From: Candidatus Latescibacterota bacterium
GTDB lineage: Bacteria > Latescibacterota > UBA2968 > UBA8231
Assembly: GCA_965197905.1 (NCBI GenBank)
Contig: CBDAOB010000004.1
Location: forward strand, 128,001 to 192,000
Length of the DNA stretch: 64,000 nt
Direction: 5' to 3'
Of the stretch, positions 42,299 to 44,426 are shown piece after piece (within the stretch, counting starts at the first letter, position 1; each line of letters begins with the position of its first letter). The notes under the pieces are model-generated. The model worked only from the letters and a program-made list of their open reading frames with translations, searched no databases and had not been told where the DNA came from. A program made the translations under genes and the position numbers.

Positions 42299-42324
42299 AA
42301 TAAATAATTATCGGAACTATCTAC

Positions 42325-42353
42325 TTGACAAAGCAGCCCATAAGTAGTATATT
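42325..42353 (+). promoter_or_regulatory. Inward transposase promoter overlapping IRL
   Basis: TTGACA-N17-TATATT. Confidence 0.6.
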
Positions 42354-42385
42354 AACAAGTAGAAAGATTGAAAAAGGGGCTGAAA

Positions 42386-43315
42386 ATGACATTCGAAGAA
42401 ATCGCACAATTCTCGGAAGATGAAGCCCGAAGGCATCTGGAAAATCTGCGTTGGCTGAACGGCATTACATGCCCTCACTGTGAATCCAAGGACGCTACAC
42501 GCATGGAGGGCGAGGCACATCGCAAGGGTGCCATACAGTGCAACGACTGCCGCCAGCAGTTCACGGTTACCGTGGGCACCGTGATGGAGTCCACAAGGGT
42601 TCCGCTGCGCAAATGGATCATGGCCTTTCATCTCTTGTGCTCCAGTAAGAAGGGGTATAGCGCCCTTCAGTTGAAACGCGATCTCGGCTTGGGATCTTAC
42701 AAGACGGCTTGGTTTATGGCTCACAGAATCCGCTATGCGATGAATAACGGCCCCCTAAGTGAGAAGCTCAAGGGAACAGTTGAGATGGACGAAACCTATG
42801 TAGGCGGCAAACCCCGCAACAGAAGTCCGAAAAACAAGCGTGGGCGCGGCACGAAAAAGAAGCCGGTAGTAGCATTGGTAGAGCGTGATGGCGAGGTCCG
42901 ATCTAGGGCCGTGGAGAACGTCAAGGGAAAGACGTTGAACGCGGAGATCCTACAGCACGTGGACAAGCGGTCTACGCTTGTCACCGACGAACTACCGCAT
43001 TACACGCACGCTGGACGATTCGTGGGCGATCATCGCGTGATCAGACATAACGGAAGAGAGTACGTGAGACGAGAAGGGTTACTGTTGGTGACGACAAACA
43101 CGGTCGAATCGTATTTCGCCCTGATTAAGCGTGGCCACTACGGCGTGTATCACTCCATGAGCAGCAAGCACATAGGGCGGTATGTGGATGAATTTGCATT
43201 CCGATGGAACCACAGGAAGGCGAATGATTCAGAGCGGCGCGATACCGCGATTCAACAAGGGGAGGGGAAACGATTGATGTACTCAGAAAACCATTGTACT
43301 CAAGAAAATGTTTAA
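42386..43315 (+). CDS. IS1595-family DDE transposase
   Basis: Zn ribbon CPHC...CNDC, HTH (SALQLKRDLG.GSYKTAW), VEMDETYVGG, LVTDE, TNTVESYF, Y.DEFAFRWN. Confidence 0.95.
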   Translation: MTFEEIAQFSEDEARRHLENLRWLNGITCPHCESKDATRMEGEAHRKGAIQCNDCRQQFTVTVGTVMESTRVPLRKWIMAFHLLCSSKKGYSALQLKRDLGLGSYKTAWFMAHRIRYAMNNGPLSEKLKGTVEMDETYVGGKPRNRSPKNKRGRGTKKKPVVALVERDGEVRSRAVENVKGKTLNAEILQHVDKRSTLVTDELPHYTHAGRFVGDHRVIRHNGREYVRREGLLLVTTNTVESYFALIKRGHYGVYHSMSSKHIGRYVDEFAFRWNHRKANDSERRDTAIQQGEGKRLMYSENHCTQENV

Positions 43316-43331
43316 CGTTGTTGACATTTGG

Positions 43332-43360
43332 TTGACATTTGCTAGCGGATTTATTACTCT
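43332..43360 (+). promoter_or_regulatory. Sigma70-like promoter pointing antisense into the tRNA-like pair
   Basis: TTGACA-N17-TACTCT; the -35 lies in a tandem GTTGACATTTG repeat (43320-43341). Confidence 0.5.
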
Positions 43361-43386
43361 AACAAATAACCTTTGTTGTACAAAGT

Positions 43387-43467
43387 TGGTAGCCCCACCG
43401 GGACTCGAACCCGGAACCTGCGCCGTTCGATGGGTCCAGCTGCTCTATCCAGTTGAGCTACAGGGCC
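43387..43467 (-). tRNA. tRNA-like gene, 81 nt, Arg-like body, non-canonical anticodon arm (anticodon undetermined)
   Basis: GGCCCTG/TGGGGCT acceptor + A-CCA, D arm GCTC-AACTGGATA-GAGC, T arm CCGGG-TTCGAGT-CCCGG; anticodon/variable region 4 nt longer than canonical. Confidence 0.75.
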
Positions 43468-43491
43468 ACCAATTTTTCTGACAAAGGACTA

Positions 43492-43563
43492 TGGTGGAGG
43501 CAGGGGGAATTGAACCCCCCGGTACAGGTGTCTAAGTCCACTACCGGCTACCTAGCTGCCCCC
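43492..43563 (-). ncRNA. 72-nt tmRNA tRNA-like-domain (TLD)-like / Ala-tRNA-mimic RNA
   Basis: GGGGGCA/TGCCTCC acceptor with G3·U70, A-CCA end, T arm GGGGG-TTCAATT-CCCCC, no D stem, central CGGTA..GTG/CAC..TACCG hairpin. Confidence 0.7.
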
Positions 43564-44060
43564 ACGCTGGATGTGAAAATCCCGTTACCAGATTCCCCGG
43601 TAACGGGATTTTCCTCTTTGTGCAAAGATTCTCGCCATTTCATAGTCAGTCGGTATGCTGACTTACCGTTGCGCTTACCGGCTCGCTCAATGATTTTGCG
43701 CTTCCCAAATGATTTTAAGACCGTGTGAGCTGATCCAAGGAGATTGTCAGATTCGCTATGCAACTTCCCTTGCTCCTTGAGCTTCTGCAATTCGTCTCTT
43801 AATTCTGAGGGGTTCCAAGCCCGAGTGTGGTTATTGCGAAAAATGCTGGTAATCGCTTCGACGGGACCGACCGCTTCCACTCTTAGCGCCACCTCACTGT
43901 TGCCGTTACCCGAAATCGGGAACTGCGGTCCCTTGAGTAAGGTTTTAACGGCAGCCAGTTGCTCTTGTACGGCATTAAGCTCACGTTGGATCTCGTTGAC
44001 CTTATTGAGCAAGAATTTGCGTCGATCAGCTAAGGCGATTTCAAATTGCCTGTCGTCCAT
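43548..44060 (-). CDS. IS passenger protein: N-terminal coiled coil + probable winged-helix domain
   Basis: ATG 44060 after AAGGAGA; heptad-like LLNKVNEIQRELNAVQEQLAAV; helix-helix-helix-wing-like pattern ending IIERAGKRNGKSAYRL. Confidence 0.65.
   Translation of the reverse strand: MDDRQFEIALADRRKFLLNKVNEIQRELNAVQEQLAAVKTLLKGPQFPISGNGNSEVALRVEAVGPVEAITSIFRNNHTRAWNPSELRDELQKLKEQGKLHSESDNLLGSAHTVLKSFGKRKIIERAGKRNGKSAYRLTMKWRESLHKEENPVTGESGNGIFTSSVGAAR
43575..43613. terminator. Perfect 15-bp inverted repeat, possible bidirectional terminator or processing stem
   Basis: GAAAATCCCGTTACC-N9-GGTAACGGGATTTTC. Confidence 0.55.
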
Positions 44061-44138
44061 TGTTGATCTCCTTGGTTGGAGAATTACTGGCCCCAAGCTT
44101 AAAATAGCTTACGCACCAAGTTAGCACAAGTTGAAATT

Positions 44139-44339
44139 ATGGGTAAGAATAAAAGCACCAAATGCACCAAGAATGATAATCAAGAATTAGAACAAGCGCA
44201 AGGTGGGTTATCCTTGCACCCCTTGAACCCTGACGAAGCCCTCGCGGCGTTTCTGGACACGCCACCACCAGAGGATGAGCAGGGTAATAAAAACCGAAAA
44301 CGAGGTGCTGATAAAAAGAAGGATACGAGGGAAGAGTAG
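44139..44339 (+). CDS. Small IS passenger protein (66 aa)
   Basis: ORF inside the IS, divergent from the wHTH ORF; LSLHPLNPDEALAAFLDTPP core, basic tail. Confidence 0.5.
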   Translation: MGKNKSTKCTKNDNQELEQAQGGLSLHPLNPDEALAAFLDTPPPEDEQGNKNRKRGADKKKDTREE

Positions 44340-44426
44340 GTCTAAGTGCTAATAAATACGTGGCTTTGCGATAGCTTTCTTAAGTAGATAGTTCCGATAA
44401 TTATTACTCTCATTGGCACGGAATTC

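Follow-up and report, generated by a model that had tools for sequence, protein, structure and literature searches.

Alanyl-tRNA synthetase (AlaRS) reads the acceptor of its substrate and not the anticodon (PMC3985003), and two kinds of unusual RNA are already known that come close to the one described here, namely anticodon-mismatched tRNAs near transposon genes and tmRNAs reduced to their tRNA-like domain (TLD). Among the former, allo-tRNAs with G3·U70 or serine identity and foreign anticodons inserted alanine or serine in E. coli (PMC5389517, PMC7609411), and some transposon-linked allo-tRNAs failed in translation (Mukai et al., PMC5389517). In tmRNA, SmpB stands in for the missing anticodon stem-loop (PMC8012679). 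TLD-only forms, which have no coding sequence, occur in mycobacteriophage DS6A, in plastids of Mallomonadaceae and among mitochondrial tmRNAs (PMC4131195, PMC11915505); those of plastids are about 65 nt long (PMC11915505), and the DS6A-like RNA inhibits tmRNA, perhaps by titrating SmpB (PMC4131195).

The window analysed is a stretch of 64,000 nt from a Candidatus Latescibacterota genome (GCA_965197905.1, contig CBDAOB010000004.1, positions 128,001 to 192,000). An earlier note had placed in it a 72-nt mini-tmRNA gene at 43492..43563 on the minus strand, and letters, coordinates and strand all match. The gene lies mid-way in a complete 2,085-bp element of the IS1595 family (42312-44396), which is absent from that note, as is the second irregular tRNA gene beside it. 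The IS1595 family is marked by a DDE transposase with a zinc ribbon, short terminal inverted repeats (TIRs), an 8-bp target-site duplication (TSD) and passenger ORFs. A DDE_Tnp_IS1595 transposase, TIRs and an 8-bp target duplication are present in the element, the features of which are as follows.

42304..42311, plus strand: target-site duplication, left copy, 8 bp, ATAATTAT
42312..42334, plus strand: left terminal inverted repeat
42368..43315 (likely start 42386), plus strand: IS1595-family DDE transposase (PF12762, E 1.1e-40; PF12760)
43387..43467, minus strand: second irregular tRNA-like gene (ARAGORN; RF00005, 40.9 bits)
43492..43563, minus strand: compact alanine-identity tRNA-like RNA gene, 72 nt (81.6 bits on model R2, of which it is a seed sequence; covariation)
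43563-43557/43502-43496, minus strand: acceptor of the 72-nt RNA, 7 bp, read from the sequence
43556-43547, minus strand: D mini-hairpin of the 72-nt RNA
43546-43520, minus strand: long arm of the 72-nt RNA
43530..43536, minus strand: anticodon-like 7-nt loop CUUAGAC (expectation maximization with the triplet masked; family pairing test of registers)
43519-43503, minus strand: T arm of the 72-nt RNA, 5-bp stem and 7-nt loop
43495 and 43494-43492, minus strand: A73 and encoded CCA of the 72-nt RNA
43548..44060, minus strand: passenger ORF, 170 aa, N-terminal long helix and winged-helix-like domain (weak)
43575..43613, minus strand: perfect 15-bp hairpin, no U tract, 11 nt upstream of the 72-nt RNA
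44139..44339, plus strand: small ORF near the right end, 66 aa, no family found
44374..44396, minus strand: right terminal inverted repeat
44397..44404, plus strand: target-site duplication, right copy, 8 bp, ATAATTAT

The transposase reaches 201 bits against NF033547 (cut-off 75), and the left TIR holds the TTGACA box of a sigma-70-like promoter (11/12) aimed at it. The RNA cassette and the transposase gene are convergent; for the cassette itself a sigma-70-like promoter and a terminator were sought and not found. The element is single-copy in the host, a search of 60 relatives found no close copy, and a T-arm pattern run over 13 other IS1595-like sites in the host found no such RNA. At least six more IS1595-like elements, whose TIRs are intact and whose cargo differs, lie on host contigs C2-C5; the ends of two of them are near-identical. 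The passenger ORF runs through the 15-bp hairpin and has its stop codon at nt 14-16 of the 72-nt RNA; 5' maturation of the RNA would turn the mRNA of the ORF non-stop (window 43548-43563). Three homologs of the ORF are 65% identical and near-invariant in the tail over the hairpin, which points to a constraint on the nucleic acid, and the hairpin may be a processing, stability or attenuation element. The model of the 170-aa protein has a pLDDT of 59; its best fold matches are Fur and forkhead proteins (E 0.03-0.07), with none at E 0.001, and its neighbours in the Atlas are unnamed, the nearest named one being HARE-HTH (0.87). A longer 182-aa reading has no match in Pfam or NCBIfam, the similarly placed ORFs of loci L448 and L450 give no profile match, and searches of 167 other genomes of the phylum, of the JGI metagenomes and of GTDB did not find the ORF.

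The acceptor with G3·U70 (43561/43498), A73, the encoded CCA and the full T arm, all described in the earlier note, are borne out by the sequence. Two of its other descriptions stand in part: the D-loop-like segment exists but is self-complementary rather than unpaired, with 3 bp around an NGGU loop, and the one hairpin, far from short, is a 27-nt arm with a conserved anticodon-like loop at its apex. The D mini-hairpin shows two-sided changes among relatives at two of its three pairs, and its pairing probability in the 72-nt molecule is only about 0.4. Where a canonical tRNA-Ala has U8, a full D arm, a variable loop and an NGC anticodon, the RNA has G8, a 10-nt D segment, no variable loop and a UAG triplet. 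The comparison with tmRNA and tRNA models that the note had proposed did return tmRNA (RF00023) as the best Rfam match, at 34.1 bits (E 8.7e-11; cmscan), below the gathering score of 47; ARAGORN made no call. In the 6.7-Mb host genome a loose gene pattern had just two matches, this site and one tRNA-Ala, which together with the RF00023 E-value indicates that the gene is more than a chance match. By RNAfold alone its folding z-score is a non-significant -1.08.

The note had also held that the gene is no att-site remnant, and this holds: both acceptor strands are present and paired, and the gene lies mid-element. An att-site remnant of ssrA or tRNA-Ala was considered as a candidate and rejected, the gene being different from the host ssrA and from the three host tRNA-Ala genes; from ssrA it differs in the D segment and the T stem. 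The host has an intact ssrA, smpB, its own tRNA-Leu(UAG) and, elsewhere, a real 3' remnant of ssrA (C4:1320609-1320635), and the 72-nt gene is thus neither a remnant nor a replacement. That remnant closes an interval (G000:C4:1301039-1320635) in which ssrA is followed 19 kb on by a duplicate of its 3' end, and such a duplicate is the signature left when a genomic island integrates into ssrA.

The 72-nt gene very probably belongs to a family of compact alanine-identity tRNA-like RNAs. Patterns blind to the apical loop, which fixed the GGGG/UCC ends and required the D segment to hold strong bases, found four sequences of the same build in the viral collection. In the unfitted alignment of these with the 72-nt RNA, 98% of the cells are paired, as against 40-52% in slid controls, with two-sided changes at 12 of the 20 pairs. 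The family was then searched with a covariance model R1 and its successor R2 (17 seed sequences), and is taken here as the 34 sequences scoring at least 50 bits on R2, 23 cellular and 11 viral; L516 and L546 (below 50 bits), a second match in G807 (L599) and the match in G346 are left out. On R2 the members reach 50-82 bits, against 43-47 for tRNA-Ala, ordinary or from phages, and 37-42 for the TLD-only RNAs of phages. They are 68-75 nt long, with a mean pairwise identity of 68%, and share 7/5 acceptor/T pairing, a D segment of about 10 nt, a long arm and a T arm, with neither U8 nor a variable-loop connector at the junction. CCA is encoded in 21 of the 34. G3·U70, which the note had expected true homologs to keep, is present in 32 and A73 in all 34, and with both acceptor strands able to pair the note is supported in that the RNA is, judged from sequence, a complete and probably alanylatable tRNA mimic. 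Three base pairs can close the D segment into a hairpin whose loop contains GG, and the two inner pairs covary (one of the two alignments being model-fitted). A loose scan finds at least three such pairs in 27/34 members and in 14/24 phage TLD-only RNAs and does not separate the two groups, so that the D hairpin rests on covariation.

Members are spread over several phyla. Of 151 genomes from the host's phylum at least 6, the host included, have a member, as do, in further samples of 151 genomes each, at least 3 (centred on Tepidisphaeraceae), 5 (Acidobacteriaceae), 2 (a delta proteobacterium), 1 (Verrucomicrobiae) and 4 (Dehalococcoidales); the counts are lower bounds, with 33 candidates scored per genome, and the unpublished genome G346, among the 5 positives, enters the tally only and was left out of the analysis. 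In cultured phages and plasmids, blastn with the 72-nt RNA found only T-arm or tRNA matches. R1 found no member at 80 GTDB loci with this TIR (best 27.6 bits) and one at 80 JGI IS1595 loci.

The link to transposons extends well beyond the window. An IS1595 or IS1-like transposase, sought with three query proteins, lies within 1.6 kb of 16 of the 23 cellular members, against none of the 36 tRNA loci taken as controls, the host genome as a whole giving 0.8%; among viral-collection members the figure is 3/11. Complete elements bounded by TIRs and TSDs enclose the members of the window, L194, G104 and G059, the first two of which were reached through the transposase and the last two were not. A hairpin of at least 10 Watson-Crick pairs stands upstream of 18/34 members (3 of 170 shuffles), and a second tRNA-like gene lies alongside 7/34, in tandem arrays of different irregular tRNAs. 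In one of these (L577, G147:C1:4615800-4616060) a 68-nt member sits between two Arg-like bodies with odd anticodons, which resemble the second tRNA gene of the window. Among complete GTDB elements with this TIR type, 8/24 carry irregular anticodon-mismatched tRNAs (shuffles, 1/480), most of which, judged by eye, have a Leu-type body and a UGG triplet; at the JGI loci a strict pattern, which missed L194, picked up tRNA-like passengers in one complete element out of 15 and in six open ones. The IS1595 elements with tRNA genes (L220, L221, L244, L261, L266, L278, L287 and L296 in GTDB, L157 and L196 in JGI) have Leu-type D arms, mostly long variable arms and the UGG (Pro) triplet, which makes these tRNAs candidates for Pro-to-Leu mistranslation. 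IMG/VR also holds phage tRNA-like genes (L417, L423, L442 and L449) whose first acceptor pair is mismatched and whose D segment is short; they have G73, and their loop reads CUA (amber).

At the apex of the long arm, 18-22 nt from the acceptor in 32/34 members, lies a loop with the signature of an anticodon loop. The apical motif has a log-likelihood of 194, as against at most 39 in 30 shuffles, and expectation maximization with the triplet masked returned a 7-nt loop with C32 in 30, U33 in 30 and A38 in 32 of the 34 members; among the 17 members outside the R2 seed, U33 and A38 are each found in 16. A second run, against a composition background, settled one base further 3' (Y32 32/34, U33 25/34, R37 33/34, one stop anticodon). 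The first register is preferred, since both of its closing pairs form in most of the 34 members (30-40 in 32, 29-41 in 30) and those of the shifted register in 17 each; folding energy alone cannot separate the registers and is ambiguous for even-sized loops. In the preferred register the triplets are UUA (9), UAG (4), UCC (4), CUA (3), UGA, GAU and CCA (2 each) and eight singletons, 15 types in all. An alanine anticodon occurs in one member and stop anticodons in 12, an enrichment of p 2e-8 over 3/64 that becomes 35% observed against 25% expected when the U34/A36-rich composition is taken as given, and on which it bears that R1 was seeded with UUA-like loops. Stop anticodons are found in 6 of the 11 viral members, which came from loop-blind patterns, and in 7 of the 17 outside the R2 seed. 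Unlike in ordinary tRNAs, a purine stands at position 37 in no more than 19/34. The 72-nt RNA itself reads UAG (Leu, codon CUA; 43534-43532) in the family register, a one-base shift within 43530..43536 would give UUA (ochre), and an A·A mismatch flanks the loop; the triplet is taken here as a leucine anticodon, the alternative being that the loop is a UUA form that has lost one base.

The second tRNA-like gene starts 24 nt downstream of the 72-nt RNA, in tandem, and has ordinary D and T arms, a weak acceptor with three G·U pairs and an 11-nt anticodon loop. Four sequencing runs were compared with the window. Both genes are represented in three of these, metatranscriptomes from a single study whose record names a sponge metagenome, by contigs without substitution over 43384-43599 (212 nt, depth 6), 43439-43599 (170 nt, depth 9) and 43381-43584 (200 nt, depth 32). 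Two contigs are without 4 nt at 43435, in the oversize loop of the second gene, and the loose end of the third fits the same form; this loss (43435-43438, anticodon arm) brings the second gene to ordinary length and is either a strain difference or an RNA-level event. The transposase, the passenger ORF and the host flanks all lie outside the contigs of this study. The contigs speak for presence only, the gap in coverage and the shared end at 43599 carrying no meaning as transcript boundaries, and, being unstranded and possibly derived from DNA, they are no more than compatible with expression of the pair.

The best reading of these observations, held tentatively and with decoding as its uncertain part, is that of an alanine-charged cargo RNA resembling a missense or nonsense suppressor. 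The RNA would be transcribed together with the adjoining irregular tRNA, trimmed to its CCA end by RNase P and 3' nucleases, and charged with alanine by the host AlaRS through G3·U70, blind to the anticodon. EF-Tu would bring it to the ribosome, with the long arm in place of the D and anticodon stems, and the apical loop would read a non-alanine codon. This copy would insert alanine at leucine CUA codons, perhaps at CUN, and about a third of its relatives would cause readthrough of UAA or UAG, so that the element would carry an agent of low-level mistranslation or readthrough, for which a stress, addiction or anti-phage role is plausible. With neither U8 nor a variable-loop connector at the junction, an L shape that the A site would accept is putative, which counts against decoding, as do the frequencies of purine 37 and of encoded CCA. 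A family with frequent stop-codon anticodons suggests that such elements can meddle with the reading of the host's genetic code. A broader proposal is doubtful as a whole: IS1595 and IS1-like elements across many uncultured phyla would carry a code-bending tRNA toolkit. It would consist of compact alanine tRNAs built on a four-way junction and showing a stop or foreign anticodon, and of tRNAs that join a Leu body to a proline anticodon; both would be charged without regard to the anticodon and would cause programmed readthrough or mistranslation in the service of the element, by way of addiction, of abortive action against phages or of readthrough of the element's own genes. On this view the compact RNA would represent a bacterial tRNA architecture of a new, minimal kind, able to decode with neither connector nor variable-loop nucleotides.

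The same features can be read as those of a decoy, matured and perhaps charged, that never decodes, its loop soaking up anticodon nucleases or tRNA-modifying toxins or its body tying up AlaRS or EF-Tu, with the element-carrying cell protected or slowed as the outcome. We regard this as rather unlikely, but it agrees with a loop signature that is kept while the triplet varies over 15 types, with a non-purine 37 in 15/34 and no encoded CCA in 13/34, with the tandem arrays of different irregular tRNAs beside 7/34 members, and with the report of irregular tRNAs near toxin-antitoxin genes that are charged and unused in translation (Mukai et al., PMC5389517). A decoy would, however, be expected to show common sense anticodons, and UUA and CUA, absent from normal tRNAs, are the commonest class (12/34); nor does a nuclease decoy need an alanine identity kept as strictly as in 32/34 members.

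The model of the earlier note, an alanylatable TLD mimic that binds SmpB and inhibits or short-circuits trans-translation in the manner of DS6A, has become improbable. TLD-only RNAs that perhaps titrate SmpB do exist, in phage DS6A (PMC4131195, PMC11915505), and the host carries ssrA and smpB. The family is close to such RNAs in several respects: the best Rfam match is tmRNA, the acceptor is tmRNA-like, position 8 is never U (G in 30, C in 4 of 34), GG stands at a TLD-like spacing in 31/34, and one member (L398/L485) is exceptional in reaching 47.9 bits on RF00023. The comparison with genuine TLDs nevertheless goes against it. A TLD-type pattern scan of IMG/VR gave 70 matches, 40 of them distinct and 24 of at most 68 nt. 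Of these 24 short phage RNAs, 22 have a D segment with UCGA together with a connector of the GAC type that joins helix P2 to the T stem; the connector by itself is present in all 24, the host ssrA has both motifs, and none of the 34 family members has either. These two motifs we take to be the SmpB site; a literature search for a statement to this effect found none. All 10 phage TLD-only RNAs tested reach 49.8-69.2 bits on RF00023, against the 34.1 bits of the 72-nt RNA and 23-38 bits for at least 11 of 21 further members. Whereas a TLD has no anticodon stem-loop, the family RNAs carry their own anticodon-like loop (C32, U33, A38) on a paired arm, and this conserved loop has no role in a TLD. 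The 72-nt RNA is therefore probably not a mini-tmRNA. Genuine TLD-only mini-tmRNAs are frequent in contigs of uncultured phages (the 70 narrow-pattern matches include 22 different sequences of this type, against the single case of DS6A cited in the accessible literature); they lie at IMG/VR loci within L343-L412 (e.g. L353:1501-1567, L349:298-363, L346:1501-1567) and are mostly 66-67 nt long. A group I intron match spans one of them (L347:1355-1643), a weak twister-ribozyme match lies near another (L353:563-620), and a match in phage Kumao was set aside as a full-length tmRNA.

Only a slim chance is given to a processing signal acting in cis, in which the fold recruits RNase P to cut the passenger transcript and so stops antisense read-through into the convergent transposase, and in which here the cut would also remove the stop codon of the 170-aa ORF and lead to SsrA tagging of its product. 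The stop codon inside the RNA, past the 5' end of which the three homologs also extend, the frequency of upstream hairpins (18/34) and the orientation of the cassette towards the transposase in the window, L194, L549 and L588 would suit such a signal, but the upstream ORF ends before the RNA in L194, L549, L486 and L489, and RNase P requires neither G3·U70 nor an anticodon loop, both of which are conserved. A neutral relic, a decayed tRNA-Ala or ssrA fragment acquired by the transposon, is disfavoured and the least probable: the single copy, the absence of the element from the 60 relatives searched, the non-significant z-score and the neighbouring 11-nt loop would fit it, but not the covarying stems and fixed architecture over 34 sequences, several phyla and three transposase types, a D segment and T stem unlike those of the host ssrA, or the near-invariant DNA under the hairpin in homologous ORFs otherwise 65% identical.

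If the suppressor-like reading is true, the family provides a natural and very small bacterial suppressor-tRNA scaffold, of a kind that annotation tools miss (no ARAGORN call, a sub-threshold tmRNA match in Rfam), and plain insertion sequences can bear RNA cargo acting on host translation; if instead the RNAs are decoys, unrecognised tRNA-targeting conflict systems are indicated. The minimum of a tRNA that the bacterial ribosome needs becomes testable, as does the reason why irregular tRNAs recur beside transposases, anecdotal so far for allo-tRNAs, and a compact, orthogonal-looking ochre or amber reader is of interest for genetic-code work. The compact 7/5 form without a variable loop and its systematic carriage by IS1595 and IS1-like elements are apparently undescribed: neither is found in Rfam 15 or in the full-text literature, a corpus that leaves subscription papers mostly uncovered, and the full-text search found nothing linking IS1595 to tRNA-like cargo.

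Compared with TLD-only tmRNA, the 72-nt RNA thus shares a length of about 65-75 nt, a tmRNA-like acceptor with G3·U70, A73 and CCA, a T arm, the lack of a tag frame and carriage by a mobile element; TLD-only tmRNA keeps the UCGA D segment and the GAC connector, and the family RNAs have a D mini-hairpin and an arm of nearly fixed length ending in an anticodon-like loop. With tRNA-Ala the family shares G3·U70, A73 and the T arm, and some phage tRNA-Ala(UGC) genes also have a short D segment with GG at its apex, but the family has no U8, no variable loop and, in 33/34 members, a non-alanine anticodon. In D-armless mitochondrial tRNA-Ser and tRNA-Pyl a longer anticodon stem compensates for the reduced D region. 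With these tRNAs, whose general features are given in PMC7609411, the family shares a reduced D region and a lengthened anticodon arm, and some members carry an amber loop; unlike these, it is bacterial and transposon-borne, with alanine identity and an intact TUC loop. With the allo-tRNAs it shares the uncoupling of identity from anticodon (G3·U70 in 32/34, an alanine anticodon in 1/34), that is, an AlaRS or SerRS identity blind to the anticodon combined with foreign sense or ochre anticodons, and it is also like them in its tandem irregular tRNAs, its links to transposon genes and toxin-antitoxin systems and its presence in metatranscriptomes (Mukai et al. 2017, PMC5389517; PMC7609411). The acceptor domain is 8/4 or 9/3 in allo-tRNAs, which also have a long variable arm, and 7/5 in the family, which has no variable loop and a D segment of 10 nt; none of 32 rows of the Mukai et al. 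2017 supplement is of this form (PMC5389517). The element of the window, finally, agrees with the IS1595 family in transposase type, TIRs, TSD and passenger ORFs, and adds to the cargo of that family a set of tRNA-like RNA genes.
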